DNA of 64,000 bases from Pseudomonadales bacterium (GCA_020632235.1 JACKFY010000002.1:96894-160893); one strand, 5' to 3'; positions 1,307 through 29,201 are shown, numbered from the stretch's first letter. A program made the numbers and translations. The notes: generated by a model not told the origin, from the sequence alone.

Positions 1307-1882
1307 TTATTGCTTGATGAAGCTGATTTCCAGCTTCTGGTTTCGATCGATATGACTATTCAATTGTACATCTGACAGAGAGATAGGGGAGATGCTTGAG
1401 GCATCTATGACCCAAAGAGCTCTCTCTGCATCGACCATGACGATTTGCCCTGGGGCATCTCGCCAGGTGAATGGTTGTAGCGCGTTCAGATGAAACTGCC
1501 GCGCGCCAATTTGTACGACAACAGCGGTCCCGTCAAGCGACACGGCCTTCACGAATGATGGTCGTGTTTGTTCCCACTCCTCAGTGAGTTGAAAGCTTTG
1601 GGTAGAAGCGTAGCGTATTTCATCCTGATGAATCAGGGTAAAGTTCACTATATTTTCTTTTTCCCGTAACTCAAGTGACTCCGATGGAGTGAGCCAGCCA
1701 TCAATATCGGTTTCCCACCAGGGTGCTGAAACCTCGGGGGTTACTTCAGTGATGACTGCAGTGGGAGCTACTCTACGCAGCTCAGGGTTATTGAGTAAGC
1801 CTGGTGGGCCAAATGCAAAACAGGCGACCACAATTGCAATAAACAAACAAATTTCTAATATTGGCGCATATATTTTTTTCAT
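1307..1882 (-). CDS. hypothetical N-terminally membrane-anchored protein, 12 nt upstream of the previous gene (operon)
   Basis: 191-aa ORF with single N-terminal hydrophobic helix (ILEICLFIAIVVACFAF), no recognisable catalytic motif. Confidence 0.45.
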   Translation of the reverse strand: MKKIYAPILEICLFIAIVVACFAFGPPGLLNNPELRRVAPTAVITEVTPEVSAPWWETDIDGWLTPSESLELREKENIVNFTLIHQDEIRYASTQSFQLTEEWEQTRPSFVKAVSLDGTAVVVQIGARQFHLNALQPFTWRDAPGQIVMVDAERALWVIDASSISPISLSDVQLNSHIDRNQKLEISFIKQ

Positions 1883-2092
1883 ACCAACAACCTCCTTTTG
1901 TAAATTAAGTTGTTTTTAAAGAGCACCCTCACTCACCGCCCATTCCCTCACAAAAAGAGAGAAGAGCAATGGCAAGAGTACGTGCTAACGTGACGTTAGC
2001 AGCAAGAAGTATATCAGAACAAATCACTAATGTCAATAATAAATATATTATAGGTTTATTTAAAACAGAAGTTGGTGTATACTAGAGGGGTA

Positions 2093-3013
2093 ATGAACGA
2101 ACATGATTACTCGGTACTGTCTAAGCCTGGTTTTTCCTCGCAATCTCGAGAAGGCAGAGAGTTGCGCATGAGGTATTTCATGCTGACTGATAGGCTCATT
2201 CATACCATTCAAAGCGGCATAGAGGTAAGAGCTGCAGAGGGGGGGGTGGAGTATAAGTCGATTGATGTTGTTTTATTTTTAGACAAATCAGCGCGTCCGG
2301 TTTCGTGGTTGCTGCGAGATTTATGGCCAGTTTTGGCACAAGATAGTGCCGGATTTGTTCCTGCTATGCCTGAAATCCGCTATATAAATATAGGGAAAGA
2401 TCAACAGGTAACTCCTGATGATGTAATGCGCTTGCGGGCGGTATTTATGCAGCCAAAGAATAGGAGGCTTGTGGCGGAGGGCGTCATCGACAGACCTTCG
2501 TTTCTTGACAACAAAACAATCTTGGTGGTAGATGAGGTGCGCGCTACAGGCAAAACATTAAAAAATGCTTTGCTCGTGTTGAGGCGTTCGTTTCCCACAA
2601 CGCACTTTAGGGGAACCTACTGGATGGACTCAATCGGAGTGCAAAACCAAGGCCCTTTTGCAACAATGGGCGAAAACCCAGTGTGGTATCGATCTGACAC
2701 AGATATTGGTAGAGGTGTAAAGTCAAAGGGAGTTAGCATGCCAAACGGAGACAATAATCCCTACAGAGCTTCTCGGTTGTCTTGGGATTTTTTGAGCAGA
2801 AGATGGGAGTCTCCAGATTTACTTTCCCAAAAATTGAGAGAAGATATCAAGCACTTGACAACCCACCCAGATGTGCCTATTAGAGCCCATCCAGCCAGAT
2901 CAGAGGATGAAGGCTTTGAGTTATATAAAAGACGAATGGAGCGGCTAAATCCTGGACTCACGTTTACAGAAATAATGAAACAGATTCATGAAATTTTGGA
3001 TGTAAGGAGGTAG
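2093..3013 (+). CDS. phosphoribosyltransferase (PRTase)-domain protein
   Basis: PRTase PRPP-binding signature ILVVDEVRATGKTL; track ORF begins at TTG 2072, ATG at 2093 preceded by GAGGGG is the more likely start. Confidence 0.55.
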   Translation: MNEHDYSVLSKPGFSSQSREGRELRMRYFMLTDRLIHTIQSGIEVRAAEGGVEYKSIDVVLFLDKSARPVSWLLRDLWPVLAQDSAGFVPAMPEIRYINIGKDQQVTPDDVMRLRAVFMQPKNRRLVAEGVIDRPSFLDNKTILVVDEVRATGKTLKNALLVLRRSFPTTHFRGTYWMDSIGVQNQGPFATMGENPVWYRSDTDIGRGVKSKGVSMPNGDNNPYRASRLSWDFLSRRWESPDLLSQKLREDIKHLTTHPDVPIRAHPARSEDEGFELYKRRMERLNPGLTFTEIMKQIHEILDVRR

Positions 3014-3242
3014 TCTCTTGATAGAATAGAACATATGCCCCGACCATATACATAGCCGGGGCAAAAAAATTACTTGAGGGCTTTTCGTACTAGCAGAAAA
3101 GCTAGTGCGAGCCCTCCAACTACCAGTAGGGCAGTCATATGCCCTCCTTTCTTTTTGGCACAAACAAAAAAACGCATGTGTTTGATGGTTTATGCCATTT
3201 TAACATCTTTTATTATACACCTATCCTCTCAGTTATAAGTCT

Positions 3243-5414
3243 TTATCGCTTCTTTGCGTACCGTTCTCGACTCACCTTGATCACTTTTTCTCTATTTTGA
3301 TTGCTACTACTAGCCAGCGGGAGAGTGTGGGCGGGGAAGGGTTTGGAGGCAATATTATCTATAGTGAGCTTATTTATCACCTGGTGTTTGCCAAGTGAAA
3401 CGAGGTCGTCGGTAGTGTACAAACCGCCAAATTCTTTTTGGAACACCTGCGCGTCATCTGCCCCCATCACAAAACTAATCATACTGCCGCAGTTGCCAAA
3501 GATAGCCTTCTGCACGTCTTCAGGGATTTGGGCAATAAACTGGTTGGCCAGGGTAAGATTGAGTCGGTACTTTCGTGCCTCCGAAAGGATTTTATTAAAC
3601 GACTCAGTCGCAAAGTTTTGAAACTCGTCTACATATAGATAAAAATCACTACGTTCCTCCTCTGGCATCTTGACTCTACCCATAGCAGCCAGCTGTATCT
3701 TGGTAATAAGCATTGCCCCAAGTAATGTAGCGTTATCTTCGCCTAGCCTGCCCTGCGAGAGATTAACGAGTAGGATTTTTTTGTTGTCCATCAGCTCTTC
3801 GATGCTAAACGAGCTTTTATGAGCGTTAACCACGCTACGAACGATAGGTGACGAGACAAACTGCCCCACTTTATTGAGAATGGAAGCAATAGACTCAGTC
3901 CGCTGACGCTCGTTTAATTTGTTGTACTCATCTACCCAAAATGACTTGAGGATCTCATCGTCAAGGTTCTCGATCATCTTGTCGCGAAACTTTTTATTTA
4001 CCAATAGCTCAACAATATCTGACATCCGGGCGCTTTCTACCGTGAGAAGGGTTAGAAGCGTGTTGCGCAAGATATACTCGAGTCGTGGTCCCCAAGAGTA
4101 GCCGTAGAGCTTATGAAAAATAGAGATAATCCCAGAGGCAATTAGCTCTCGATGCACGACATTCTCACCCTCAAATAGGTTTATCTTGACTGTTCTCTCG
4201 GGGTCACTGGGATTAAAGTACACCACGTCATTAATGCGATGTGACGGGATGTAATCAAGTAGCGTCTCGACAAGGTCTCCATGTGGGTCTATCACGCACA
4301 GCCCCTCACCTTTCTTGATGTCGTGTATAGCCATGTTGGCGAGTAGTGTAGACTTCCCGGTACCGGTTTTGCCGATTACGTACATATGACGTCTTCTATC
4401 AGGTCTTTTAATGCCATAGATAGTGGGTGAGTTTTTATATATGGTTTTGGCAAATGGATTGGTATTTTGTTTTGCCTCTTCTGTGCTGTTACTAGTAATA
4501 ATAGGCAGGTTTTCTGGCGGCTCACCCAGCAAGGACTTTCCCCAGGCTATATTGGGAATAGTAGCAAGGTTTTTATTAGGCAGATGCCAAATGGTCGCTA
4601 GCTCTGAAGTATTGAGAAAGTATGAGTGTCCAAGCGAAAATGTTCGCTCCACAACGTGTTTGCGTGCTTTTTTCTTAAAAAAAAGTGGTTTTTTAAGTGT
4701 AAACTGGTTACTTTCGCTGAGCGAAAAAACTTGAGATGAGGCATATATTGCCTCAAGTATGTATCGTGTTCTCTCGTGTGTTGGGGCACTGGTGAGTGCG
4801 CGTACGCTTGTTTTGAGGGTCTGTTTGCTCATTTTTTTTGCAATATGCGCTTGTTGAGTGCTTGATAGAGATGGTTTTTCATCAGCGTTCAGGGTTGCTG
4901 GGGTGTGGATGAGCCCACCTCCTTGGGAGACGAGCACTTGAATAAGGGCGGAGTCATGTTCTTGAAACTTTGAGAGGGTGGAGAGAAGAGCGCTGAGCGG
5001 ATCGGTGTCAGCAAACTGGTCGTATGTTTTGATGGGAAGTGAAGAGTCTCTTCCAAGGTCTAAAAAAGCAAATTCTGTAATGGGTTGTGGTTGGTAGTTT
5101 TGCTCAAGGCCAGATTGGTGAGCGGAAAATACATGGATATAATCATCTTGAGTTGTGTTAATTAGTATTTGAGGAAAACTTGCGCTGAGCGAGCTTTCAA
5201 TGTAGCTTTGTACTTTTTTTGGGCACACACAGTAAAATGATACTGTTTGGTTGCGCGCCAATATTTCGAATGAAATAGGATCACTTTTGCCTAGTAGTTT
5301 GTGGAAAAGAGCATCTTTGATGGTTGGAATTGTTTCAAATAGATACTCGGCGGCAGAGGCAAGAGACTCACTATCTCTACCTGTTCTCAGCTCTAATACT
5401 ATGGGGTTTTGCAT
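3243..5414 (-). CDS. TraD/TraG (VirD4)-like coupling-protein-family P-loop ATPase (HerA/FtsK superfamily), soluble (no TM helices)
   Basis: Walker A VIGKTGTGKSTL, Walker B YLYVDEFQNF, C-terminal TraG-D_C-like block SEARKYRLNLTLANQFIAQIPEDVQKAIFGNCGSMISF; N-terminal ~340 aa unassigned. Confidence 0.65.
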   Translation of the reverse strand: MQNPIVLELRTGRDSESLASAAEYLFETIPTIKDALFHKLLGKSDPISFEILARNQTVSFYCVCPKKVQSYIESSLSASFPQILINTTQDDYIHVFSAHQSGLEQNYQPQPITEFAFLDLGRDSSLPIKTYDQFADTDPLSALLSTLSKFQEHDSALIQVLVSQGGGLIHTPATLNADEKPSLSSTQQAHIAKKMSKQTLKTSVRALTSAPTHERTRYILEAIYASSQVFSLSESNQFTLKKPLFFKKKARKHVVERTFSLGHSYFLNTSELATIWHLPNKNLATIPNIAWGKSLLGEPPENLPIITSNSTEEAKQNTNPFAKTIYKNSPTIYGIKRPDRRRHMYVIGKTGTGKSTLLANMAIHDIKKGEGLCVIDPHGDLVETLLDYIPSHRINDVVYFNPSDPERTVKINLFEGENVVHRELIASGIISIFHKLYGYSWGPRLEYILRNTLLTLLTVESARMSDIVELLVNKKFRDKMIENLDDEILKSFWVDEYNKLNERQRTESIASILNKVGQFVSSPIVRSVVNAHKSSFSIEELMDNKKILLVNLSQGRLGEDNATLLGAMLITKIQLAAMGRVKMPEEERSDFYLYVDEFQNFATESFNKILSEARKYRLNLTLANQFIAQIPEDVQKAIFGNCGSMISFVMGADDAQVFQKEFGGLYTTDDLVSLGKHQVINKLTIDNIASKPFPAHTLPLASSSNQNREKVIKVSRERYAKKR

Positions 5415-5433
5415 GGTAGATCAGTATAACACT

Positions 5434-6909
5434 TTACCCACTTCCATTTTCTCTGTCTATCACCCCGTAGTCTTCTACAGCTGCTTTTTGACCCTGACGA
5501 AAACCAATCGATATACCCTCATCAGTCACGTGTATAACACTAGAAAAACGCTGGGCAAATTCATTTTTTCTATCAGGCAAACCCTCATCAGAGCTTTCAC
5601 TCCTGACCGAGTCAAGAAGGTAGAGTATTTTTATCGCCTCGGCAGTCATTTCTGCTCCTTGTTCTTCGTCATCACACTCGGTAATTCTGCCAATGAGGTT
5701 TGAAAGCAGAGTCGAGAAATAGATTTGTAGTTCTTCGTAGCGCTTTATTTTTTTATCAAACTTGCTTTTTTCTTCATCTTCAGCGTTATTTTTCCAGACT
5801 TCTAGTTGTTTTTTTGATGGATGCAAGCCTGAAAAAAGTGCAAATTTCCACGCATCTACATCTGCAGTCTTTCCTTGACTACCAATAATTCGTTGTCTCC
5901 AGTACATCTCATATTCTTTGTATAGCTTTGTTTGAAAGTTGTTAAAAGACTGGGCAATATATGCTGCTAACGTAATTTTTTCTTCAGTGCTTGCTTCTGA
6001 CATCTTGACGAGAAGCTCCAGATTTTCTGGATCAATGTTTATTTGATAGTTGTCAGGGGATTGTGCAAGAATGTTTTCCAACTCATGCAAGAACGCCTCT
6101 CTATAATTGCCAGTGAGATGAGGTAGTTTTGAGAGGGCGTCGGTTATTTTTGCTAAGTGCTGGATTCTTTTGGAAACCTTCCCTCTTTTTAGTTCTGGCT
6201 CAGCATCACTGCTTTTAAATACAGCATACTTTGGGAGTGGCACCAGATTTAGTTTTTTTCTTCCACTCTCGGTGAGGCGCAACACTACATTAAAGTGCCC
6301 GAGTGGCGCACTCTGTGAGCCCCTTCCTAGGCCAGTTTGGGTCCTTGATTGGTCTATTTCTGTGACTGATGTAATGTTCGCGTAGCCAGTTAGGCCGTAT
6401 ATCTCTATACTATAGTCAACACCTTCTTGCAAATCACGTTTTTTAGCCAGGTTTTTTAAGACCCGTTTTGCTTCATCAATATGACGAGCAATAACCTCAA
6501 AAAAAGCAGCGTGTTGTTGAGGGCTTAATCGCAATAAGTCATGATCTAACTTTGTTTCTTCTACATCCCACCACACAATAATGTGCGGGGCATAGGGAGG
6601 TGTTTCATCGTGCTGGCCAACATGTTCTCTCATTATTTGTTGAAGAGAGACATCTGTGTGGGGCGAGGCAGCTGGGGCACTCATGACGATCCCGCTTGTC
6701 TGGGGGTCGTCAATTGTAGTACTTGGAGTGAGGTGTGTGCTGAACTGTTTTTGTAGATAGTGTGCTAGATTTTCAGCTTGGTCTTTCAAAATTTGCGCCA
6801 GACTTCGGTCGTCATCGTTTCGTGGCAGAACGGAAGGTATCACTAAATGAGCTAGTGGGTATGCTGCCATCTTTCTTAAGGTAGCCTGGACAGCTGCTTC
6901 AACACTCAT
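5434..6909 (-). CDS. hypothetical protein, 19-nt upstream operon partner of the ATPase; weak relaxase-like HDE(x6)PH motif
   Basis: 491 aa, ATG start; motif GQHDETPPYAPHIIVWWD reminiscent of MOB-family relaxase motif III (HxDE...PHxH) but the second His is missing. Confidence 0.45.
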   Translation of the reverse strand: MSVEAAVQATLRKMAAYPLAHLVIPSVLPRNDDDRSLAQILKDQAENLAHYLQKQFSTHLTPSTTIDDPQTSGIVMSAPAASPHTDVSLQQIMREHVGQHDETPPYAPHIIVWWDVEETKLDHDLLRLSPQQHAAFFEVIARHIDEAKRVLKNLAKKRDLQEGVDYSIEIYGLTGYANITSVTEIDQSRTQTGLGRGSQSAPLGHFNVVLRLTESGRKKLNLVPLPKYAVFKSSDAEPELKRGKVSKRIQHLAKITDALSKLPHLTGNYREAFLHELENILAQSPDNYQINIDPENLELLVKMSEASTEEKITLAAYIAQSFNNFQTKLYKEYEMYWRQRIIGSQGKTADVDAWKFALFSGLHPSKKQLEVWKNNAEDEEKSKFDKKIKRYEELQIYFSTLLSNLIGRITECDDEEQGAEMTAEAIKILYLLDSVRSESSDEGLPDRKNEFAQRFSSVIHVTDEGISIGFRQGQKAAVEDYGVIDRENGSG

Positions 6910-7084
6910 GGTGCTAGTTCTTCCTGTTTTTTATACACTCTCATCTCTATTGTTGAAAAATAGTATTTTTCCCTGAGTATTTTGTCATTAAATTATACTA
7001 TAAGATATCACATAGTTCAATGAAATTATATTATGAGTCTTTTTTAGTAGAAAAATAAGTTATAGCTTGATGAGTAGGGAATTA

Positions 7085-7345
7085 TAAAACCCTTTTACCA
7101 TGCTTTTGCTTGGTGTTTCCCCTTACAAGGGGAATATAAACCCCCCTGTCCCGTGCTCCGCTTGGGTTGCCCGCCCCGACTTCACATTAGGGCTTCCTTA
7201 CGAAAGTAAGAGTCAAACTTAGATTTCTCTCCGCCAGCTGGCGGATCGAACTGACAAGACAGAGTGATAAAGCAGACTCTGAAACACCCGCCTGTATCCC
7301 GACTTTTAGTCGAGGAAGAACTTCGGGCAGGAGTTCAGAGTCAGT
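7085..7345. repeat. mosaic hairpin-rich intergenic repeat, copy A (two modules)
   Basis: aaaacccttttaccatgcttttgcttggtgtttccccttacaaggggaa 7085-7135 is 52/56 identical to 11553-11603; second module taaaccccc..ctgtcccg ... atcccgacttttagtcgagg shares AAAACCC / CCCGAC-loop-GTCGGG parts with copies at 22148 and 49275. Confidence 0.55.
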
Positions 7346-7484
7346 AAAGAGGTGGGGGTCTAAAAAGCAAAAAAGCATTATTATCGCTGGGCAGATCCCA
7401 CGTATAACAATGCTTTTTCTTGAGCAATAACCTAGTAAACTAGGAAATAACTTGTACTTATGAAGTTACCAAGTATTTTTGTTA

Positions 7485-7513: not shown

Positions 7514-7562
7514 AGGTCAATATCTATCAATTTTCTTTAAAAATCTACAATAAGGGTGTTGT

Positions 7563-7621
7563 GTGGAGGTTCGGCAGTAGGGCAGGCAGCCGAGCTTCCA
7601 CCCAGCGCCTTTGTTTTTTTT
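7563..7621 (+). promoter_or_regulatory. 13-bp stem-loop followed by a U8 tract in the rho leader (candidate attenuator/autoregulatory structure)
   Basis: GTGGAGGTTCGGC (7563-7575) pairs with GCCGAGCTTCCAC (7589-7601) incl. 2 G-U pairs; ~11-nt spacer then TTTGTTTTTTTT. Confidence 0.35.
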
Positions 7622-7884: not shown

Positions 7885-9192
7885 GTGAACAATATGACAG
7901 ACATAACAAAAAAAAGCACAAAAACTCCAGTGACCAAGAAAAATTCTCCTAAACCAAAAAACGAGCCAGTAGTAAAAAAACGAACTGTTCCTCCAGTAAT
8001 TCCTCTCAAACAGGCAAAGTCTGACACTATGGGCGAAAAACCCCCGTCAGGCAATAAACGAGAAACAAAGATTATTGAAGGAGTGCTCGATACATCCCGA
8101 GATGGTCATGGAGTAGTCAGGGTGGGAATGGGGGGTAATGAAGAGTTTGATGCCTACATTGCCACCTCTCATATTCGTCGTTTGGGCTTAAGGGCGGGAG
8201 ATATCATCACCGGGCCGGTGCGTGAACCAAAGGACAACGAGCGATACTGGGGTCTGCTCAAGGTAGAGACCGTAAACGGCTTGTCACCAGCCGAGTTTAC
8301 TAAAGCAAAACGACCAAAGTTCCGCAACCTTACTCCGGTGTACCCTGACGAACAGATCAAGCTTGAGATAGGTCAAGAACCACTCGCGCTGCGTATTATC
8401 GATATGGTGGCACCAATAGGAAAAGGGCAGAGGAGCTTGATTGTTTCCCCTCCAAAAGCAGGAAAAACAACACTCTTAAAAGAGATTGCCACGGGTGTTG
8501 CCCAAAACCACCCAGAGATTCATATTATGGCAGTGTTGGTAGGCGAGCGGCCAGAAGAAGTAACCGACATTCGTCGTCACATTGAGCGTATTACCAAGGG
8601 TAAGGGTGAAGTAGCTGCTAGTAACTTTGACGAGTCGGCACAAAGTCAGTGTCATGTGGCAGAGTTAGCCCTTGAGCGAGCTATGCGTATGGTAGAGATG
8701 GGTGCCGATGTGCTTATATTACTTGACTCAATCACTCGTTTGGCGAGGGCGTACAACCTCGCCATTCCTACGTCTGGTAGGACGCTGTCTGGTGGCTTTG
8801 ACCCACAGGCGTTATTTCCGCCTAAAAAATTCTTTGGGGCAGCACGTAATTTCGAAGTGCCTGGAAGTTTGACCATTGTTGGCACAGCCCTTATTGATAC
8901 GGGTTCGCGCATGGATGAGGTGATTTTTGAAGAGTTTAAGGGTACGGGCAATCAAGAGGTTCATCTTGACAGACGCCTAGCAGAGAGGCGTACGTATCCA
9001 GCACTTGATGTACAACGATCTGGCACCCGCCGAGACGACTTACTTATCGAGCCTATGACGTACCAATCAATCCTCACGCTACATAGAATGCTTGATACAC
9101 TAGATCAAAATGAGCGTACGGCTACACTCATCAACCAAATGCGTCGCACCACAACGAATAAAGAATTTTTAGCTTCTCTCAAGACAGCGTAG
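7885..9192 (+). CDS. rho: transcription termination factor Rho with Lys-rich N-terminal extension
   Basis: Walker A GKGQRSLIVSPPKAGKTTLL, RecA-like core and C-terminal RTYPALDVQRSGTRRDDLL; track start is GTG 7885, ATG at 7894 is an alternative. Confidence 0.9.
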   Translation: MNNMTDITKKSTKTPVTKKNSPKPKNEPVVKKRTVPPVIPLKQAKSDTMGEKPPSGNKRETKIIEGVLDTSRDGHGVVRVGMGGNEEFDAYIATSHIRRLGLRAGDIITGPVREPKDNERYWGLLKVETVNGLSPAEFTKAKRPKFRNLTPVYPDEQIKLEIGQEPLALRIIDMVAPIGKGQRSLIVSPPKAGKTTLLKEIATGVAQNHPEIHIMAVLVGERPEEVTDIRRHIERITKGKGEVAASNFDESAQSQCHVAELALERAMRMVEMGADVLILLDSITRLARAYNLAIPTSGRTLSGGFDPQALFPPKKFFGAARNFEVPGSLTIVGTALIDTGSRMDEVIFEEFKGTGNQEVHLDRRLAERRTYPALDVQRSGTRRDDLLIEPMTYQSILTLHRMLDTLDQNERTATLINQMRRTTTNKEFLASLKTA

Positions 9193-13872: not shown

Positions 13873-14304
13873 ATGAAAAAAACTGGCTTTACCCTTATTG
13901 AAATACTTATTGTTGTGTCTATTATTGGTATCTTGGCGGCTCTTATTGTAGGAAACTTTTTGTCAGCCAGAGAAAGAGCAGCCGATGGAGCCATGAAAGG
14001 AGAGTTGGGTCAGCTGAAAACAGCTCTTCAGTTGTACTACAATGATAATCAGTCTTTTCCTTCCAGTCTTCCAGCAGAAGATCAGCAGTTTTCTGACAAT
14101 GGAACTACCTATATGGGTTCTATACCGAGAGTTGATTACTACGAGCAGCTAGACTCTGGTGATGATTTTCTTTCGTGTTCGGGGCTTGAACGCGCCGCTG
14201 ATGATCAAAAGGTGACACTAGAGAGATGTGATGTTGATGAATCTGTTGTTGAAACTTTGGCTTCTGAGGGAAGAGAAAATCCCTACTGTGTCTGTGCGGA
14301 TTAG
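13873..14304 (+). CDS. type IV pilin / pseudopilin (prepilin N-terminal cleavage-methylation domain)
   Basis: MKKTGFTLIEILIVVSIIGILAALIV class III signal with G|FTLIE cleavage/methylation site; Cys-rich C-terminus; divergent from the ligase-like gene (96-bp shared upstream region). Confidence 0.8.
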   Translation: MKKTGFTLIEILIVVSIIGILAALIVGNFLSARERAADGAMKGELGQLKTALQLYYNDNQSFPSSLPAEDQQFSDNGTTYMGSIPRVDYYEQLDSGDDFLSCSGLERAADDQKVTLERCDVDESVVETLASEGRENPYCVCAD

Positions 14305-17300
14305 TTGATAATCCACCAGTTAAAGGTGACGTCGTTTGATGATGGGTTATCAAAGCCAACGGTAAGTAGCGCCTCATTTTCTAGAGTTTCTGGATTATCT
14401 GTTTGTTGATTTTTGATATACAACACCTGATTGCCTGTACTCCCCACAGGCGTGATGTAGACGAGTGAGTCTTGCGTGAGGCTGCTAGCAATGATGGAGA
14501 GCTCTGTTTGATTACTCTTGATCGTTGCTTTGCCGGAAGAAGCGCTGGTTGCTAGGGGTTCTCCCTCTGGCTGCTGTGTGAAGTCTTGGGCGTTGAGCCC
14601 CAGCTTGCTAAATTGAGCCTCGCCGTCTGCATCAATGCTGGCAACAGCAGTCTGTGTTTCGTCAACAACTTCAAAGCTAGAATCTAGCACCTCGCCAGAG
14701 CTCGTAGCAACGCCGGCCACCTGTACGCGCAGTGGGTTTTCGTACGAGGTGGGTTGGAGTAAGTCTCCCAAGAGCGACCCTTCAACTGCAACGTCACCAG
14801 CAACTGTTAGGTTGCCATCAATTTTTGCCAGACCAGAATCATCAAGAGTGAGGAGTCCTGCCAGTAGCTCAATTGTACCCATTCCCTCTGGCTGAATGTG
14901 CAGGGTGTCTTGACTGTCTGCGGCCTGGTAGCTGAGTACTCCATCTGCCAGTGTGGTGCGCTCGCCAATAGCAATGCTACTTCCCACCCCCAGCATATCT
15001 GAAACATACGCAATACCATTTACATTAAAGTAGGTTGTGACGTACACAGCATCTGGCACAATGACGGTTTCAGTGGCACTGAGGTTTAAGTCCTCAAGAG
15101 AAAGATCTAATTCTGAGGTGCTCACTGGTGTGTAGCCCAGACCTTCTGCAACGCTGGCTGCCGCAGTGGCCGGGGCAGGGTTTTCCGGCTGGATACCACG
15201 AATGATGTCAATCAGGCTTTGCTCATTAAGTGATGAGGCAACTTTGTCATCAAGCCCATCGATGTTTTGTGCATATAATGTACCCGAGACAGTAGCGTTC
15301 ATAAACTCTGCTGTTTGGGCGTTTATCTCTCTCATTTGAGCAATTTCTGTTTCAAGGTAGGAAAGGCGGGCAGACTCTGCGGTGATACTTTCACTTGCTA
15401 AAGTACCCGATATGGTAGCTTCTTGTGCCAGTAATGTGCTCAAATTGGTTTCTTCTTGTACCACTAGGTTGTTGGTGGTCACTGTTTCTGCAGCTACCTT
15501 TCCGCTAAAGGTAGCGTTGCCTTGATTATCTATTTGAGCTACTACACTACCGTTACTATTTTTCACGGCTAGATTATTGATTACAGCATCTTCCGGCAAA
15601 CTTTGGCGTTGTTGTTCAGTATTGATAATCCTTTTAATCATGGACTCGATAGACTCGCCTTTGATAGAAAGAGCAGAGGTGTTCAAACTTTGCACCTCTG
15701 CCGTTTTGGTTACAACCAGCTCTTTAGTGTGTACGAGTCCGGCAGTCATATTCGCAATAAAGGCTTTAGAAGCACCAATGACTGCAGAGAGAGGAGAGCT
15801 GACACCTGCTGGCGTGGCTGTGTACGTGCCGTTTTGTTTTGCAATAATGACTGTGCCGTCTGGTGCGAGTGAGATCTTTTCTAGCTTAGTCAGTTTTGAC
15901 TTGTTGGACATAATAAGTGATTGTTGTTCTTGCACGGCATTCACCAGTACTGCAGTGAGTTGTTTGTACTTCACACCTTCTATTTGGCCATTGGCGTATG
16001 TTGCTAGTAGTGGATCAATTTGTTCTACCTCTTCTGCAACGAAACCAAGATCATGCATGCCATCTGCCTTCCAGTCAAATACAACTGGTCTCAGTTGCAT
16101 TACTTCATTCAGACCCAGGTCAAGGCTTTCAATGTTTTCTTTGTACCTTTGGCTGGAAGAACAGGTGCTTAAGGCATTGAGAGTATTTCTACATACGTCT
16201 GTAGCACCATTAAAAGATAATACACCAAGAAACAGGCCGCCTGTCAATGCGCCATTGCCATTAACATGAAGTGCTTGTGTTGGTGTTACGCCAATTCCTA
16301 ATTGGCCAGAACTATTGATTTCTAGAGCAGTGTTGCTACCTGGAGTTGTGCCGGTGCCAATAAAGAACGAGTCGTCGTTGTCGTTTCCCGCATCATCTTG
16401 CACACCCATCCAAAAGTCAGTATCTGTTGAGGTAGAAGTATCAAATATAATAGAAGAATCTGCTTTATTGAGTGTTAAATCACCACTAAGAGTTCCCCCA
16501 CTTAATGCTAAATATCTGCCGTCGAGCTGAGTTCTCGTGAGTAAGTCACCACCTGCATTATTATCAAGATAGCCTTCTGTACCCAGGTCTGAGTAGGCAG
16601 AAAATGAGTTGTCACTTACAGAGCCACCACTTATAGTGAGGTCATTTGCCACATATGCATCGGCGATTGCACTGCCTTGCCAGGTACCAGTACCAATAGT
16701 CCCCAGTGTCGTAATGCTTGTTTGTCCTGCATAGGTAGAAGCTATTCTCAAACCACTCGCACTCTTTGAAAGCGTAGAGCCATCTAGTTCAAGAGAGAAG
16801 ACAGTGCCAGACTCTTCTATGCCAAGACCATCTGCAGAGTAGGTGGTATTAGTATCATTACTGCCCGTAGCACTAATGGTAATAGTGTCTGTTGTAGCAT
16901 TGGTGGTGATAGTCACATTAGAGCCTGCTGCAAGAGTAAGAGTGTCATTGTTTTGATCAGATACGACGTTTGATTGTCCTGAGACTGCTATGTTTTTAAA
17001 GATGTTTTGTTGTGAACCTCTATCACTGTTGGTAACAGTAAAAGTAGTACCTTCACCAGCACTACCTGATACTGATATACCCGTACCTGCTGCAACTGAC
17101 CCAGCATAGTTGCCAGTGGTGTCAGTACCAAGAGCTACTGCATCAGGTTGGATAACAACACTGCCTAGTCCTGTTCCTGCTACATCACCTGCAATATCAA
17201 TAGCAGCTTCTAGTGTGCTTTCTGTAGTGGCATCAATACTATCAAGACCATTGAGGGTACCTGTTCCTGCAAGGTTGATGGTAGTAACAGTGTCTAGTAC

Positions 17301-20243
17301 TGTCTCTAGACTAAAGGTAGTGCCTGTAAGATCTAGATCACTCCCCGCAGAGTAGGTAGTATCACTATCAGTACCAGTGATAGTGAGGGTGTCACCAGTG
17401 ATACTGGTAGATATACTGCCTGCACCAGCAACAGTGAGAGTATCTGTAGTTGTGTCTGCACTGGTACTACCTGTATCTGCAGTGAATGTCTCCCACAAGT
17501 TCTGTGCGCCAGGAATACTAACCCAATCTACACCACTACCAGTAGAAGAGAGTACTTGACCACTTGTACCTACATCTCCATTGATGTCAGTGAGTGTGCC
17601 ATTGAGCTCTAGATCACTGTCCAAATCTACAGCACCTGTGAATCTACCAGTGCCATTGACATCGAGTTTGTAGGTAGGGGTGTCATCATTTATTCCTACA
17701 TTGCCATTTAAGTCTATTCTCATAAGTTCGTCATTGGCACTTGCATATGAGTTGCGAAAGATATACCCATGCTGGGCATCCAAAACCATATTGGTTCCTA
17801 TTCTTTGAAGAGAAAAGGTATTGCCTGTTATATAAAGCGCACCAGCTTGATTCGTGCCTCTTAACGTATTTCCTATAAAATCAAATCCATTGCTCGAAGC
17901 ATTTCGGTACTGAAAACTGTCTGATGTTAATGCAACTGCTGTTGGGCTTCCAGAAAAAAACTCTTTCTCCGGATATCCAGAACTTAATCGGATCGAATTG
18001 CGCGCATTTAAATGTAAGTACGTTGAAGAACCTGAATCATAAATTCTGCTAGAGCTACTCCCAAACTTTAAAGTTCCATCGCTCTTTATGTGTAAATCAG
18101 CTGTTGGATCAGTTACCCCAATTCCAACGTTGCCACTATTCGAGTTGTAAATATTATTCCCGTTTGCTGTCCAAAGACTTCCACCTCCGACTGCGTTATC
18201 TACATAGTCTTTTGTAGTCACAACCGTTCCTATATCACCGCTGACTGTTGATTGCGAGCGGATTTTGCCGTTCACGTCGAGTTTTGAGGCTGGGGTGGTG
18301 GTACCAATCCCCACACTCCCACTCGTATCAATCCTCATCCTCTCACTGCCATTTGTTTCGAAGGCTAGTGAGTTGTTGTCATTAGTACCAAGTGTGGCCA
18401 GGCCGCCAAAGCTATTGCCGTCTTGTTTGTAATATGTTGGGTCTAGAGTTGTACTAATACTGGACCATGCAGTGCCGGTGCCGGTAGATGAAAGGATTTG
18501 CCCACTGGTACCTGCTGATGAAGTGTTATCTATAAATGCGCCAGTTACTTCCAGATCTCCCGCAATGGTGCTGTTGCTATTAAGATTTATCTCTCCTGTG
18601 CCATCAGGACTCAAGTCAATATCGCCATTACTGCCAGCACCAGTTTCAAGCAATAATGACTGAGCGGTAATAGAAAACGTGCCAGAGTCAGATCTGATAG
18701 AGGGGGAGACTTCACCTAGTACTACCTGACCGTTGTCGTTCATGGTGAGAATGGTATTGACAGTGGCAGACTCGCTGGCGTTGATGGGGAACCCTTGGAT
18801 AGTCTCGGCGTTGAGGGCGTAGGCTACTGCTTTGATGGGCTGACGAGGGGAGAGGGTTTCGCTGGCAACAGTGACCTCCAGGTACACACCGGCGTTTTCG
18901 GTAAAGACATCTTCTGCTATTTCGCTGCCACACTCGTCACCCAGTCCTGTTGAAAATATGCCATCTTGGTCGGGGGTAACACTACACGCGCCAGAATCCC
19001 ACAGCTGCGTGCCTCCACTCGGGGAATCAAAGAGCTTAAACTGCATGTTGGTGGCTGTAGTGATGGGGGTTTGAGCAGTATCAGTCAGCCTACCCTGAAA
19101 TGAGAGCGAGCGGGTGGGGCGGGTGGGGGTGGAGGGGTAGGCGAGGGAGGGTATTGTTTCTCTAACGAGTTGCTGGTACCCAAAGAAGCCCATGAGCCCC
19201 AATAGGAACACAATAATACCAAAGTTGACAAAGCTAAGCCCCCGAGAAAACACATTTTTCTTGGTATCTGAGTGCAACTCAGCAATTCGTTTTTCAATTA
19301 CCAAGTTTGTTTTTTCCTGTTCTTCCCAGTTTTTTTGCACTTCAGCGGAGTAAAGTGCATCAGGAGGGACAACTTCTGGAGTGTCTTTTTTTTCAGTATG
19401 ATTACTAGCTTGATAGTTGTCCTCAGCCTCTTGTTGCTCTATTTTCTGGATCGTATTTTTTGGTCCAAGAGTAGGCCAATTATTTTCTTGTACTCTTTGT
19501 GTATCAAAAGAGTCTTTAGTAGGTACATATGTACTCAGTTGACTGGTAGCTATGTTTGGTTTTTGTTCACCAGAATAAAAACCATAGTGTTCATCTTGAC
19601 CATTTTTAAAAGAGGTCAACCAACCAAATGAATCTTTGGATATGTTGTTGTCTCTCATCCAGTAGGCAAACTGGGAAATGCTTGTTAATTTTCGTGTGAT
19701 GGTGTTCTCAGAAAGTCCCTTGCTTTTCTCATTTTTGAGGAATTTTGATAGTTTGGTTCTTGTGATAACCGGAGTGTTCGTCTGAGCTGGCGAAAAAGAT
19801 AAAAACTGCTTGATATCACTTTTATAATTTTTAATAGTTCCCTGCGAGCAGCCGGAGTCTTTGAGTGCTAAAAGGTACTCCTCCAGATACATCTCTCCCC
19901 AAGTATTAGGAAGTTGTGCTAAAAATCGTTGCAGAATGCTCCTCAACCTAACCGAGATCCCCCTATTTTTCATTTTTTCTTCGGATATATGGATTAGCTG
20001 TTTTGGGGAGTTTTTATCAGTAAGCTCTGTAGATGCGTCAAGGAGTACCTGAGAGATAACCTCTTGGTCTTCAGCGCTCATCAATTGCTGTGAGTAAAAG
20101 CGAGCTGCTTTTGCGTGCACAACTTGGAAAATGGGGGTATGGGTAGGCATGATTATTGGTGTAGTAAAAACGTGTAATCCAGGCTTAATAGACCGTATTG
20201 CAGATATGTAACTAGGATATCTTGATTCAAGAGAGGTAGTCAA
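14301..20243 (-). CDS. giant (1980 aa) single-pass surface protein: cytoplasmic integrase-N SAM-like domain, TM helix, phage tail-fibre-like repeat region, internal S74 (endosialidase intramolecular chaperone)-like domain, ~500-aa C-terminal extension
   Basis: Residues ~100-210 resemble XerC/D N-terminal SAM-like core-binding domain (EEYLLALKDSGCSQGTIKNYKSDIKQFLSF); TM ~334-357 (FVNFGIIVFLLGLMGFFGY); repeats GSVGIGTTTPASKLDVNGKIRS / GNVGINDDTPTYKLDVNGTGRF / GNVGIGVTDPTADLHIKS; S74-like block SSQRYKENIESLDLGLNEVMQLRPVVFDWKADGMHDLGFVAEEVEQIDPLLATYANGQIEGVKYKQLTAVLVNAVQEQ at residues ~1363-1470 (nt ~15836-16157); possible later start at MSAEDQ (nt 20081). Confidence 0.75.
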   Translation of the reverse strand: MTTSLESRYPSYISAIRSIKPGLHVFTTPIIMPTHTPIFQVVHAKAARFYSQQLMSAEDQEVISQVLLDASTELTDKNSPKQLIHISEEKMKNRGISVRLRSILQRFLAQLPNTWGEMYLEEYLLALKDSGCSQGTIKNYKSDIKQFLSFSPAQTNTPVITRTKLSKFLKNEKSKGLSENTITRKLTSISQFAYWMRDNNISKDSFGWLTSFKNGQDEHYGFYSGEQKPNIATSQLSTYVPTKDSFDTQRVQENNWPTLGPKNTIQKIEQQEAEDNYQASNHTEKKDTPEVVPPDALYSAEVQKNWEEQEKTNLVIEKRIAELHSDTKKNVFSRGLSFVNFGIIVFLLGLMGFFGYQQLVRETIPSLAYPSTPTRPTRSLSFQGRLTDTAQTPITTATNMQFKLFDSPSGGTQLWDSGACSVTPDQDGIFSTGLGDECGSEIAEDVFTENAGVYLEVTVASETLSPRQPIKAVAYALNAETIQGFPINASESATVNTILTMNDNGQVVLGEVSPSIRSDSGTFSITAQSLLLETGAGSNGDIDLSPDGTGEINLNSNSTIAGDLEVTGAFIDNTSSAGTSGQILSSTGTGTAWSSISTTLDPTYYKQDGNSFGGLATLGTNDNNSLAFETNGSERMRIDTSGSVGIGTTTPASKLDVNGKIRSQSTVSGDIGTVVTTKDYVDNAVGGGSLWTANGNNIYNSNSGNVGIGVTDPTADLHIKSDGTLKFGSSSSRIYDSGSSTYLHLNARNSIRLSSGYPEKEFFSGSPTAVALTSDSFQYRNASSNGFDFIGNTLRGTNQAGALYITGNTFSLQRIGTNMVLDAQHGYIFRNSYASANDELMRIDLNGNVGINDDTPTYKLDVNGTGRFTGAVDLDSDLELNGTLTDINGDVGTSGQVLSSTGSGVDWVSIPGAQNLWETFTADTGSTSADTTTDTLTVAGAGSISTSITGDTLTITGTDSDTTYSAGSDLDLTGTTFSLETVLDTVTTINLAGTGTLNGLDSIDATTESTLEAAIDIAGDVAGTGLGSVVIQPDAVALGTDTTGNYAGSVAAGTGISVSGSAGEGTTFTVTNSDRGSQQNIFKNIAVSGQSNVVSDQNNDTLTLAAGSNVTITTNATTDTITISATGSNDTNTTYSADGLGIEESGTVFSLELDGSTLSKSASGLRIASTYAGQTSITTLGTIGTGTWQGSAIADAYVANDLTISGGSVSDNSFSAYSDLGTEGYLDNNAGGDLLTRTQLDGRYLALSGGTLSGDLTLNKADSSIIFDTSTSTDTDFWMGVQDDAGNDNDDSFFIGTGTTPGSNTALEINSSGQLGIGVTPTQALHVNGNGALTGGLFLGVLSFNGATDVCRNTLNALSTCSSSQRYKENIESLDLGLNEVMQLRPVVFDWKADGMHDLGFVAEEVEQIDPLLATYANGQIEGVKYKQLTAVLVNAVQEQQSLIMSNKSKLTKLEKISLAPDGTVIIAKQNGTYTATPAGVSSPLSAVIGASKAFIANMTAGLVHTKELVVTKTAEVQSLNTSALSIKGESIESMIKRIINTEQQRQSLPEDAVINNLAVKNSNGSVVAQIDNQGNATFSGKVAAETVTTNNLVVQEETNLSTLLAQEATISGTLASESITAESARLSYLETEIAQMREINAQTAEFMNATVSGTLYAQNIDGLDDKVASSLNEQSLIDIIRGIQPENPAPATAAASVAEGLGYTPVSTSELDLSLEDLNLSATETVIVPDAVYVTTYFNVNGIAYVSDMLGVGSSIAIGERTTLADGVLSYQAADSQDTLHIQPEGMGTIELLAGLLTLDDSGLAKIDGNLTVAGDVAVEGSLLGDLLQPTSYENPLRVQVAGVATSSGEVLDSSFEVVDETQTAVASIDADGEAQFSKLGLNAQDFTQQPEGEPLATSASSGKATIKSNQTELSIIASSLTQDSLVYITPVGSTGNQVLYIKNQQTDNPETLENEALLTVGFDNPSSNDVTFNWWIIN

Positions 20244-25278: not shown

Positions 25279-25301
25279 TACGTATTCCTTTCTTGAGTTT
25301 T

Positions 25302-26741: not shown

Positions 26742-26852
26742 AAATAAGACTTTGTTTAAATTTTAGTACGTACAACCAAAATACTAGATAGATTTTGAGT
26801 GACACGCAAGTACTAAAAATTAGGTGGAGTGATGAGGAGTATGTTTTTAGGC

Positions 26853-27785: not shown

Positions 27786-27789
27786 AGTA

Positions 27790-28533: not shown

Positions 28534-29201
28534 AGAGATTGCTCTTGCTTTTCTACTTCGCTGATGACGAGTGAGAGCTGTGTTTTCATTTCGTCTCTGG
28601 TTATTTCTTCATCGGTAATCATTTTTTCTAGGGTGGCCAACTTTGGCATGATGTATTGCTCTACAAACACCACCTCTTTATTTTTTGCATCTTCTCCATT
28701 TTGGGCACGTTGTTCTTCCATTATTGCCTTGTGAGCATGTGTTACTGCACGCTCATGTTCTCTTTTGGTAAATAAAAACAGAATGAAAAGAAGCGGGAGT
28801 AAGAGTAGTGGGGCGAAGTCAAGTAGCGTGTTGATGGGGTGTTGGGTGAGTAGGAGTAATCCAGCGCCGAGTACGGCGATGAGTCCAGGCAAAAGGGGAA
28901 CAAAAAATGCCACTAAAAAGGTGAAGCTAGTCAAAAGGAGGCTTAAAAGTGATGGATAGTCTTTCAGCGAGCTTAAAGCAATAAGCATGATGACCACCAA
29001 ACACAACATCTCAAACGGTCCATAAGACACAGCACTTTTTGATTTTCGCTGCCGAAACTTCATCAAAACGACACACACAGATCCCACCGCAATTAACTGT
29101 GGTGAGTAGCTGGCTAGCGTGGCATGCATAGACCAGATATATGCGCCCAACACCACACAGGTCATGAAGATGGCGTACTTGGCAGATGACATAGTACACA
29201 T
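28530..29201 (-). CDS. hypothetical membrane protein with cytoplasmic coiled-coil C-terminus; heads the surface-protein gene string
   Basis: 4-5 hydrophobic helices (LIAVGSVCVVLM, LCLVVIMLIALSSL, FLVAFFVPLLPGLIAVLGAGLLLL..), C-terminal charged heptad-like region. Confidence 0.45.
   Translation of the reverse strand: MCTMSSAKYAIFMTCVVLGAYIWSMHATLASYSPQLIAVGSVCVVLMKFRQRKSKSAVSYGPFEMLCLVVIMLIALSSLKDYPSLLSLLLTSFTFLVAFFVPLLPGLIAVLGAGLLLLTQHPINTLLDFAPLLLLPLLFILFLFTKREHERAVTHAHKAIMEEQRAQNGEDAKNKEVVFVEQYIMPKLATLEKMITDEEITRDEMKTQLSLVISEVEKQEQSL

Follow-up and report, generated by a model that had tools for sequence, protein, structure and literature searches.

A soluble type IV coupling protein homologue and its apparently lineage-specific neighbour gene in a Candidatus Woesebacteria genome

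Introduction

Do two adjacent genes on a Patescibacterial chromosome, one for a coupling-protein-like ATPase and the other for a protein with a relaxase-like string, represent a mobilisation module, be it the core or a remnant of one? The question arises from a 64,000-nt stretch of DNA (hereafter the window), in which a 723-aa ATPase and a 491-aa partner are encoded 19 nt apart on the same strand, each from an ATG start, just as a preliminary description had laid out (Table 1). In Patescibacteria, relaxases are nearly absent (PMC12102498), and the essential T4SS cluster of Saccharibacteria is without a recognisable coupling protein or relaxase (PMC10633639). The Saccharibacterial setting of the preliminary description is wrong here, the genome being a Candidatus Woesebacteria (Microgenomates) MAG.

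We herein argue, with a probability of roughly 80%, that the ATPase is a chromosomally fixed, soluble homologue of type IV coupling proteins (T4CPs), that the partner is a lineage-specific insertion other than a relaxase, and that the two do not constitute a mobilisation module.

Table 1. Features of the locus, in positions of the window
Feature	Position	Strand	Remarks
Terminator-like hairpin, 12-bp stem	3036..3063	(-)	~180 nt downstream of ATPase stop codon
ATPase ORF	3243..5414	(-)	723 aa, soluble T4CP-type, ATG start
TrwB/VirD4-type nucleotide-binding domain, aa 338-663	3426..4403	(-)	Pfam and model
Walker B YLYVDE, aa 592-597	3624..3641	(-)	D596 and E597 invariant, 28 sequences
Walker A GKTGTGKS, aa 348-355	4350..4373	(-)	near-complete invariance, 28 sequences
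N-terminal soluble alpha/beta domain, aa 1-~330	4425..5414	(-)	DUF8128 on homologues, model, hydropathy
Weak promoter-like TAGACA-17-TAAAGT, 9/12	5431..5459	(-)	partner 3' end, just upstream of ATPase ATG; consensus match only
Partner ORF	5434..6909	(-)	491 aa, ATG start, rare uncharacterised family
Partner-family conserved core, aa ~72-240	6190..6696	(-)	alignment of 11 members
Relaxase-like string GQHDETPPYAPHII, partner aa 98-111	6577..6618	(-)	HDE in variable indel, H109 conserved
Promoter-like TTGAAC-17-TATAAT, 10/12	6992..7020	(-)	~83 nt upstream of partner ATG; consensus match only
GC-rich, strongly structured 266-nt stretch	7095..7360	(-)	only in this genome
Block B, conserved 21-bp hairpin and U-run	7357..7424	(-)	leader or terminator element; 11 related loci
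Block A, conserved covarying hairpin	7555..7609	(-)	invariant GCCUGCCCAAC-type loop; T-run follows on + strand reading

A soluble ATPase of the coupling-protein type

The identity of the ATPase is well defined by its profile matches. In Pfam, it scores above the cut-offs of TrwB_AAD_bind (46.2 bits vs 20.5, across aa 340-663), DUF87 (38.5 vs 23.2) and TraG-D_C (PF12696, aa 592-656, 26.7 vs 22), the last of which bears out the C-terminal resemblance that had been proposed. The Walker A and B motifs, also recognised beforehand, belong to an alignment of 28 homologues with a mean column identity of 69%, and an AF2 model (pLDDT 75) predicts a helical bundle inserted between them (aa ~417-529). The top NCBIfam matches are VirD4-like or TraD models, although all equivalog cut-offs are missed (best conju_CD1115, 55.3 bits vs 250) and the scores for TraD_Ftype, SXT_TraD and conj_TOL_TraD lie far under theirs; in NCBI the protein already goes by the name 'type IV secretion system DNA-binding domain-containing protein'. 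The N-terminal domain owes its PF26449 (DUF8128) label to precomputed annotations of homologues. Hydropathy confirms the early impression that N-terminal TM helices are missing: the top Kyte-Doolittle 19-residue window reaches 1.24, and the maxima of 27 homologues range from 1.08 to 1.43, all below 1.6.

TrwB of R388 (PDB 1e9r), the canonical T4CP, shares with the window ATPase the Walker A/B motifs and TraG-D_C, as do DotL and Cag-beta, at an identity of only ~13-14%, and the predicted helical insert of the ATPase may correspond to theirs. TrwB, however, is held by an N-terminal transmembrane anchor and acts together with the TrwC relaxase and oriT, whereas the window ATPase carries a 330-aa soluble domain in place of the anchor, and neither relaxase nor oriT was found at its locus. 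In VirB4/TrwK, too, a soluble N-terminal domain precedes the ATPase domain at the C-terminus. Yet AAA_10, CagE_TrbE_VirB and P-loop_TraG are absent from the Pfam matches of the window ATPase at E<=1, whereas the VirB4-like genes of related loci do match these profiles, and a separate, genuine VirB4-like gene co-occurs with the ATPase family in relatives and in plasmid clusters. An assignment to VirB4 was rejected.

Relatives of the ATPase are abundant, with at least 7,980 protein clusters matching it at about 60% identity and at least 584 species-level genome loci, mostly of Microgenomates and including one of Saccharimonadales. The gene is an ordinary, phylum-wide chromosomal copy, and nearly all Patescibacteria have such a coupling ATPase; it is the Woesebacterial orthologue of a Patescibacteria-wide DUF8128+TrwB_AAD_bind+DUF87+TraG-D_C family. 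A published survey (Microb Genom 2025, PMC12102498) counted 5,713 VirD4-type T4CP homologues across 2,918 Patescibacteria genomes, just 148 of them near virB4, although these matches may differ from the DUF8128 family. The surveyed proteins have the phylum, the VirD4/TrwB-type profile matches and the NCBI name class in common with the window ATPase, and they too are chromosomal, mostly distant from virB4 and without a relaxase; the DUF8128 N-domain, the missing TM anchor and the local synteny do not figure in that survey.

More distant homologues sit in plasmid conjugation clusters. On the B. subtilis plasmid NZ_CP032854, the 886-aa WP_121549396.1 (annotated 'DUF87 domain-containing protein') is likewise TM-less and matches the ATPase over its full length (24.8% identity over aa 6-693, E 1e-43), N-terminal domain included; 3' of its gene lie Replic_Relax, a conjugal transfer protein, TcpE and an AAA_10 VirB4-like gene. 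The T4CP of an Embleya plasmid, WP_331738717.1, matches at 28% over aa 109-698 (E 2e-79), in the gene order PrgI, VirB4-like, T4CP, Replic_Relax and NlpC/P60. In contrast to these genes, that of the window ATPase stands isolated on a chromosome, between housekeeping genes. The profile matches and conjugation-cluster homologues together support the proposed soluble TraD/TraG/VirD4-type ATPase.

Genomic neighbourhood

In the closest relatives, the ATPase gene belongs to a block of housekeeping synteny that runs Obg, M23/LysM, Rho, a variable slot, ATPase and RadA, and in other relatives the gene adjoins TopA, helicases or FtsH. The partner occupies the variable slot, with other orphan genes at its flanks. 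A check for VirB4 and VirB6 neighbours, suggested at the outset, gave a divided answer. In the window, a Pfam scan of the 32 largest ORFs found no VirB4, VirB6 or relaxase, and a six-frame search found no Replic_Relax; among 83 related Patescibacterial loci, on the other hand, the ATPase gene divergently adjoins a PrgI-like gene, a 242-aa gene and a VirB4-like gene in seven.

The partner gene and the relaxase question

The partner stands almost alone in sequence space. A word-index search of 5.8 billion sequences returned only the protein itself, and an exhaustive HMMER search yielded 10 remote homologues, which measure 240-521 aa, or 479-521 aa in nine cases. Pfam, NCBIfam, PADLOC, PHROG and PDB gave no match; the AF2 model averages a pLDDT of just 49, and Foldseek against PDB found nothing at E<0.3. 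The 11-member alignment nevertheless delimits a core with invariant SPHT (82-85), H109 with WW113-114, YG171-172, GH175-176, GLxRGxQS (193-200), H205 and K232. Three histidines (H84, H109 and H205) are invariant and H176 nearly so. A profile comparison (hhalign) of the partner core with a HINT1 sequence aligned GRGSQSAPLGHFNVV to SDGGQSVYHVHLHVL at a probability of only 1.4%, and none of the 11 members has a Pfam match to the HIT family. From its sequence, the partner appears to represent a rare family with an invariant, His-rich core that is not a relaxase.

The relaxase idea had grown from the string at aa 98-111, which is indeed present and had been read as an HDE..PH motif akin to relaxase motif III. 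As a conserved motif it does not hold: HDE falls in a gapped, variable stretch, and invariance is confined to the His of PH, which is H109 within PAHLxVWW. The second His expected after PH is absent (the partner reads PHII, not PHxH), and there is no invariant Tyr within the first 100 residues of the alignment. Relaxase profiles of Pfam and NCBIfam gave no partner match at E<=1, no family member matches a Pfam relaxase family, and blastp and profile searches against two Replic_Relax proteins found nothing. The stretch 6910-7084, where an oriT-like inverted repeat had been envisaged, contains none, only AT-rich direct repeats that overlap the promoter-like site. With no family match, His triad, N-terminal invariant Tyr or nearby oriT-like repeat, the partner was rejected as a relaxase.

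The adjacency of the two genes is equally restricted. Neither tblastn nor a profile search found the partner gene at any of the 83 related ATPase loci, and six further family members sit among unrelated housekeeping genes, with no T4CP or VirB4 nearby. Partner and ATPase adjoin in this lineage only, where a second assembly keeps the arrangement.

Leader elements and the insertion slot

Upstream of the ATPase unit, Block B is found at a distance of 250-490 nt in 11 related loci. It precedes the ATPase alone in six relatives, again by 250-490 nt, while in four others it is followed by the ATPase and, ahead of that, by another gene, whose product is a single-TM protein of 800-1160 aa unrelated to the partner. 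In the window it precedes partner and ATPase, with the partner in between. These comparisons indicate that the insertion of the partner, confined to this lineage, took place downstream of a conserved leader hairpin and ahead of the ATPase gene. The GC-rich stretch at 7095..7360, which has no match in Rfam, may have arrived with the partner.

Discussion

Conjugation modules of monoderms (MPF-FATA-type) probably supplied the T4CP from which the ATPase family descends, an ancestry to which the full-length homologues beside VirB4, PrgI, TcpE and Replic_Relax point. Its DUF8128 N-terminal domain stands where a T4CP usually has its membrane anchor. The protein would form an ATP-driven hexameric ring, which would recognise its substrate, either DNA or a nucleic-acid-bound protein, and feed it to a chromosomal T4SS that has no relaxase and whose genes would lie elsewhere in the genome; or else the protein may have been exapted to T4SS-independent nucleic-acid handling. 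The partner is probably co-transcribed with the ATPase, which does not imply a joint function. Given the 19-nt gap, the common strand and an upstream leader that serves both genes, the two may yet be functional partners; the comparison concerns a single lineage.

The reading of the pair as a mobilisation module, whether core or remnant, in which the 491-aa protein would be a degenerate relaxase acting with its coupling protein, has largely been refuted by the results above, and we regard it as exceedingly improbable. It can draw on the same-strand, 19-nt arrangement, on the invariance of H109, and on the Bacillus and Embleya clusters, where a T4CP homologue directly adjoins the relaxase-like Replic_Relax gene, so that T4CP-relaxase pairs do exist in this lineage of systems. 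In those clusters, however, the relaxase-like gene lies downstream of the T4CP, whereas the window partner lies upstream. The partner, moreover, lacks a relaxase-family, Replic_Relax or structural match as well as a conserved HDE, a PHxH and an invariant Tyr in its N-terminal 100 residues; it is missing at the 83 orthologous loci, its homologues are never near T4CP or VirB4, no oriT-like inverted repeat lies in 6910-7084, and the locus is flanked by housekeeping genes whose synteny is conserved. Very improbable, too, is a two-gene conflict (defence) system that combines a HerA/DndH-like ATPase scaffold with a lineage-specific enzymatic effector. PADLOC mad8 does match the ATPase (53.8 bits, 4.9e-15), as do HerA models in part, the invariant His/Arg/Gln-rich core of the partner looks enzyme-like, and the gene sits in a variable slot among orphan genes. 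But the HerA models cover only short segments, namely the P-loop or aa ~596-660, PADLOC gave no match for the partner, and no Sir2, DUF4297, NurA or other nuclease effector domain was detected nearby, nor is a Dnd partner linked. The ATPase is near-universal, syntenic in the closest relatives and part of the core genome, unlike the patchy island genes of HerA, DndH(DptH) or MADS mad8 defence; no other genome has a partner-family gene beside such an ATPase, and an absence of presence/absence co-variation between the two is indicated. A HerA-type defence ATPase was rejected for want of a full-length defence-model match and of an effector domain nearby, and in view of its phylum-wide occurrence. 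Nor do the data point to a place among HerA-like defence ATPases, an outcome that the preliminary description had named as contrary to its view, since its profiles are T4CP-type and its full-length homologues occupy the T4CP position of Gram-positive conjugation clusters.

Exaptation, a possibility that has been raised for Patescibacterial T4CP homologues (PMC12102498), would make the ATPase a soluble DNA/RNA translocase of a T4SS-free chromosomal process, such as recombination/repair (jointly with RadA), the processing of DNA taken up from outside, or segregation, and would leave the partner a bystander. We consider this unlikely, though by no means negligible. About 97% of the T4CP homologues in Patescibacteria show no linkage to virB4, and in S. 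epibionticum t4cp is non-essential whereas T4SS genes are essential (PMC12102498); the window ATPase has no membrane anchor, is conserved to a degree that is extreme for an accessory transfer protein, and belongs to a family that adjoins RadA in the closest relatives and TopA, helicases or FtsH elsewhere. On the other hand, the gene still lies directly beside PrgI and VirB4 in 7/83 loci. Solubility does not imply exaptation, since the TM-less architecture is already found in a bona fide Bacillus plasmid conjugation cluster, and the heterogeneity of the neighbours argues against any single chromosomal pathway. The partner might also serve the T4CP as a lineage-specific substrate, adaptor or effector, captured in the conserved slot between leader and T4CP gene and co-expressed with it, which we think quite improbable. 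The same strand, the 19-nt gap with no strong terminator within it and the persistence of the arrangement in a second assembly are consistent with such a client, as is the placing of different genes between Block B and ATPase, in the same orientation, by two independent lineages. The slot genes are mutually unrelated, however (the partner vs the 800-1160-aa single-TM proteins), at other loci the co-directional gene upstream has a plain housekeeping role, as with FtsH and TopA, members of the partner family in other neighbourhoods have no T4CP beside them, and a secretion signal is not known for this system.

The reading that we prefer remains that of a chromosomally fixed T4CP homologue beside a non-relaxase insertion. 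A more far-reaching proposal, to which we give little credence, is that a pair of conserved, structured RNA elements in the Rho-T4CP intergenic region of this Woesebacteria-related clade controls expression of the T4CP homologue, that the gap between leader and T4CP is a capture slot, and that the 491-aa protein is a client or effector of the T4CP. Block A would then be a covarying hairpin with an invariant C-rich loop, forming a previously undescribed pair with Block B, which would be a highly conserved leader hairpin or terminator behind a conserved promoter; different lineages would have inserted unrelated genes into the slot, co-expressed with the T4CP. If this were true, the 491-aa protein would be the founding member of a rare family whose core is His-rich and perhaps HIT-like, and it would be a lineage-specific component rather than a bystander.

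Coupling-protein lineage of the ATPase

The preliminary description had proposed a TraD/TraG-like ATPase gene and, upstream of it on the same strand, a partner gene with a relaxase-like motif. Both open reading frames (ORFs) were confirmed, each with an ATG start and separated by 19 nt. The ATPase, a protein of the type IV coupling protein (T4CP) kind, contains the Walker A (GKTGTGKS, aa 348–355) and Walker B (YLYVDE, aa 592–597) motifs and the TraG-D_C block described for it, with TrwB_AAD_bind (46.2 bits, aa 340–663), DUF87 (38.5 bits) and TraG-D_C (26.7 bits, aa 592–656) all above their Pfam gathering scores. The reported lack of N-terminal transmembrane (TM) helices also held, the maximal Kyte–Doolittle 19-residue window being 1.24, and by the same measure no membrane-spanning hydrophobic segment was found in the ATPase or 27 homologues. 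Its NCBI record (MCB9801870.1) reads 'type IV secretion system DNA-binding domain-containing protein'.

At around 60% full-length identity, the ATPase matches at least 7,980 protein clusters, whose precomputed architecture is PF26449 (DUF8128, the N-terminal domain), PF10412, PF01935 and PF12696. Carried by at least 584 species-level genomes, this is a core Patescibacterial gene; the family has already been annotated and surveyed, and the present gene adds one member to a functionally uncharacterised kind. A 28-member alignment, with a mean column identity of 69% and no variation in the P-loop, in Walker B and at numerous further sites, points to an active enzyme kept under strong purifying selection. 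Judged from sequence, the protein is a soluble, catalytically intact P-loop ATPase of the T4CP lineage, phylum-wide and under strong constraint.

Coordinates of the features discussed
Feature	Position (nt)	Strand	Description
w191, orphan ORF	1307-1882	-	191 aa, no Pfam/PHROG match
w313, orphan ORF	2072-3013	+	313 aa, no Pfam/PHROG match
ATPase ORF	3243-5414	-	723 aa
Partner ORF	5434-6909	-	491 aa
Promoter-like site	7020-6992	-	about 83 nt upstream of partner
GC-rich structured stretch	7095-7360	-	266 nt, non-coding, beside partner
Block B	7357-7424	- (ATPase strand)	21-bp hairpin, then U-run
Block A	7555-7609	- (ATPase strand)	hairpin, 19 predicted pairs
Rho	7885-9192	+	housekeeping neighbour
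Prepilin-type ORF	13873-14304	+	small protein, N-methylation motif
Giant ORF	14301-20243	-	1980 aa
Big_13 ORF	22217-24214		665 aa
Five consecutive ORFs	24235-29201	-	347, 479, 333, 247 and 223 aa, no Pfam match
Competence cluster	35306-38391	+	ComEA, then ComEC
ComEC, Competence domain	36084-37484	+	overlaps next ORF
ComEC, Lactamase_B domain	37477-38391	+	

For the ATPase, profiles favoured the T4CP models TrwB_AAD_bind, conju_CD1115, SXT_TraD and TraD; no NCBIfam equivalog cut-off was reached, and the PADLOC defence model mad8 scored similarly to the T4CP models. Foldseek ranked full-length TrwK/VirB4 first and TrwB second.

Comparison of the ATPase with related ATPases
Protein	Value
TrwB	17.6
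DptH/DndH C-domain	17.3
DotL	16.9
VirB4	16.8 and 15.4
Cag-beta	15.3
HerA	11.4
TcpA	6.9
FtsK	6.8

A plasmid tblastn search with the ATPase returned 674 records. On a 24.7-kb plasmid of B. subtilis, an 886-aa TM-less 'DUF87' homologue (24.8% identity over aa 6–693, E 1e-43) is followed by Replic_Relax, a conjugal transfer protein, TcpE and an AAA_10 VirB4-like ATPase, and an Embleya plasmid has the order PrgI – XF1762 – VirB4-like – T4CP (E 2e-79) – Replic_Relax – NlpC/P60. When the neighbours in related genomes were checked for VirB4, as the preliminary description had advised, the ATPase was found divergently adjoining PrgI-like, 242-aa and VirB4-like genes in 7 of 83 Patescibacterial loci (L025, L026, L027, L030, L034, L038 and L046), whose VirB4-like gene matches its Embleya counterpart at 1e-117 to 1e-122. 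Because of the Bacillus, Embleya and seven-locus contexts, which we regard as decisive, the family is the second ATPase, in coupling-protein position, of monoderm-type type IV secretion system (T4SS) modules, and in most Patescibacteria, this window included, it is now separated from the remaining T4SS. Profiles and plasmid clusters together thus bear out the TraD/TraG-like identity first proposed. Modestly new here are the TM-less DUF8128 architecture, common to the window ATPase and genuine Gram-positive conjugation clusters, and the PrgI–VirB4 adjacency kept in a subset of Microgenomates. In agreement with this, a published survey of 2,918 Patescibacterial genomes counted 5,713 VirD4-type T4CP homologues, of which just 148 have virB4 close by, and found relaxases almost absent from these genomes (PMC12102498).

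The seven linked loci belong to Gottesmanbacteria-type genomes, with the gene cluster at about 1.7–5.9 kb in each; their PrgI-like gene encodes 442–488 aa with a CarboxypepD_reg-like C-terminus, and the middle gene 218–249 aa. The Embleya plasmid comes from the Actinomycetota. Weaker ATPase homologues (22–29% identity, often wrongly annotated 'MsbA') occur in the Bacillus SPO1-like phages Shanette, JL and CP-51, in phage G (gp156), a Microcystis phage and the thermophilic phage D6E, and phrog_5156, of unknown function, matches ATPase aa 188–720 at 1e-76.

A rare protein family beside the ATPase

The partner (MCB9801871.1, 'hypothetical protein') found itself alone in a word-index search of 5.8 billion proteins, while exhaustive HMMER against 1.84 billion representatives gave 10 remote homologues (E 3e-8 to 8e-4), nine of 479–521 aa and one of 240 aa. 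A further alignment-based word-index search recovered P0129 alone, and a scan of viral contigs gave no relatives. Positions invariant or nearly so in the family include SPHT (82–85), PAHLxVWW (H109, W113, W114), IEIYGLxGH (Y171, G172, G175, H176), GLxRGxQSxPxGH (193–205), K232 and a C-terminal S...R...K...ED...R pattern. The family is real but rare, His-rich and newly delineated here.

The HDE..PH string on which the relaxase proposal had rested is present (GQHDETPPYAPHII, aa 98–111); its H-D-E lies where most members have gaps and shows no conservation, and of 'PHII' the first His alone is kept across the family. A Pfam scan of all 11 members yielded no relaxase family and no shared Pfam family; TraC_F_IV (E 0.0017) and Gam (E 0.0025), each in a single member and below cut-off, were treated as chance. 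The partner itself had no match in Pfam, NCBIfam, PADLOC or PHROGs, and its PDB sequence searches returned helical low-complexity matches alone (protein A repeats, designed helical bundles). Its AF2 model (pLDDT 49) is unreliable, and Foldseek of this model against the PDB gave no match. Comparison with Replic_Relax of the Bacillus and Embleya clusters, the relaxase-like gene that does accompany this T4CP lineage, was negative by blastp, phmmer and profile, nor was any Replic_Relax similarity detected in w313, w191, the 83 loci or the whole window. The partner as a relaxase was thus not borne out. A HIT-type fold for its core was also considered and is kept as a lead, not as evidence: the order of the conserved motifs resembles one, but hhalign aligned GRGSQSAPLGHFNVV to the GQSV-HxHxH strand of a HINT1 sequence at a probability of only 1.4%.

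Searches of the 83 orthologous ATPase loci by tblastn and family profile found no partner homologue, and the pairing recurs nowhere except in a second assembly from this organism, so that the pair did not hold up as a mobilisation module. Each of six other family members is surrounded by a different set of housekeeping genes (MreB/MreC/PBP, DnaB, CarB/DHOase and K+ transport among them), and none has a T4CP-like or VirB4-like gene nearby; proteins of 510 aa and 521 aa that adjoin partner homologues and carry no annotation are related to neither the partner nor the ATPase. Most likely, the partner acts independently as a small enzyme-like protein. Because its GC3 of 0.37 lies inside the range of the other window genes, composition cannot date its insertion.

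Genomic neighbourhood

The second assembly is labelled Candidatus Woesebacteria, and the related ATPase loci are overwhelmingly from Microgenomates (Woese-, Gottesman-, Levy-, Roizman- and Shapirobacteria), so the Saccharibacteria framing initially offered is wrong for this genome. In addition to Rho, the pair is surrounded by genes for an M23/LysM peptidase, Obg, a TPR protein, LeuS, ThrS, MreB, a Mur ligase, ComEA and ComEC; beyond four tRNAs, no Rfam family was found in the window. A scan of the 32 largest ORFs of the window found no VirB4, VirB6 or relaxase domain.

In the closest relatives (58–63% identity) the order is Obg – M23/LysM – Rho – variable slot of 0.9–2.1 kb – ATPase – RadA. 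The window has the Obg–M23–Rho side of this block; RadA is absent from all of it, and its position downstream of the ATPase is taken by w313 and w191, neither with a homologue in the 83 related loci. Elsewhere the genes upstream of the ATPase vary (FtsH, TopA, a DEAD helicase, sortases), and include large proteins that fall into unrelated membrane-protein clusters with no Pfam or PDB match.

These large proteins, encoded directly upstream of the ATPase and codirectional with it (gaps −22 to +156 nt; L011, L012, L013, L014, L019, also L007, L059, L064), form two unrelated families, one of about 800–1160 aa, whose N-terminus is basic and whose single TM segment lies near residue 155–190, the other of about 980–1330 aa, polytopic, with an N-terminal GWDN motif. 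Elsewhere in the window, a giant ORF, with a Phage_int_SAM_1-like region at its N-terminal end and also a Peptidase_S74 (endosialidase chaperone) domain, adjoins the prepilin-type ORF; the Big_13 ORF precedes the five Pfam-less ORFs; and in the competence cluster ComEA has SLBB and HHH domains, while ComEC is split between two ORFs that overlap.

Conserved hairpins and an apparent insertion slot in the Rho–ATPase spacer

Two elements of the Rho–ATPase spacer, Blocks A and B, are conserved in nucleotide sequence across genomes that share only 55–63% identity in their proteins (homologous sites in L001, L003–L006, L008, L009, L011, L012, L014, L015 and L019). Block A shows compensatory changes in 11 of its 19 pairs and an invariant C-rich loop of the GCCUGCCCAAC type. 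Block B, about 90% identical across these genomes, has a dG of −27.6 kcal/mol (z −4.4) and compensatory changes in 4 pairs. Between them, the ATPase strand carries a conserved promoter-like element, TTTACA-N17-TGnTAnnnT. No Rfam family was detected in the intergenic region or in four related loci. The blocks may serve the T4CP unit as a leader or attenuator, or may represent small RNAs.

Block B stands 250–490 nt upstream of the first gene of the ATPase unit, and is followed by the ATPase alone (L001, L003, L004, L008, L009, L015), by an 800–1160-aa single-TM protein and the ATPase (L011, L012, L014, L019) or, in the window, by the partner and the ATPase. Because Block B precedes these three alternative forms, the partner appears to occupy an insertion slot lying between the ATPase and a conserved leader. 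The two conserved RNA hairpins, with this apparent gene-capture slot behind them, are likewise modestly new.

The GC-rich stretch (MFE −102.9 kcal/mol, z −4.3), which has no Rfam match, separates the Block B terminator from the promoter-like site of the partner; relatives lack it and have AT-rich, mostly unstructured DNA there. It may be a non-coding RNA or a relic that came with the partner gene. The oriT-like inverted repeat sought in 6910–7084 was not found. A weaker promoter-like site lies inside the partner's 3' end, directly before the ATPase ATG, and the 19-nt spacer has no obvious Shine–Dalgarno sequence; co-transcription of the two genes is plausible but unproven.

Possible function of the ATPase

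We consider it probable, at about 60%, that the ATPase still works with a chromosomal T4SS. By analogy with established knowledge of TrwB/VirD4-type proteins, it would form a hexameric ring that uses ATP to recognise a substrate and translocate it toward a VirB4-type channel, with the DUF8128 domain standing in for the membrane anchor and perhaps docking onto VirB4/PrgI or onto the substrate. Exaptation to a T4SS-independent nucleic-acid process, explicitly left possible in the published survey, is suggested by the RadA, TopA and helicase neighbours and by the reported non-essentiality of t4cp in S. epibionticum (PMC12102498); we hold it to be unlikely, the PrgI/VirB4-linked loci being on the side of a retained T4SS role.

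The remaining explanations concern the partner. That it is a client or adaptor of the ATPase is improbable. A two-gene defence system, to which the mad8 score might be referred, seems very improbable. Least credible is a relaxase, for which the HDE..PH string had spoken.

Implications

What looked like a relaxase-plus-coupling-protein locus is an ordinary, phylum-wide orphan T4CP homologue next to an unrelated, lineage-specific neighbour, and it should be counted neither as what is left of a mobile element nor as evidence for conjugation. Except where some Microgenomates keep it beside PrgI and VirB4, the ATPase is fixed in a housekeeping neighbourhood, with RadA adjoining it in the closest relatives. 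The partner family and the leader hairpins are small new leads. The comparative data help to decide whether the relaxase-less T4SS of Patescibacteria still uses a coupling protein, a question that bears on the exchange of macromolecules between epibionts and their hosts.
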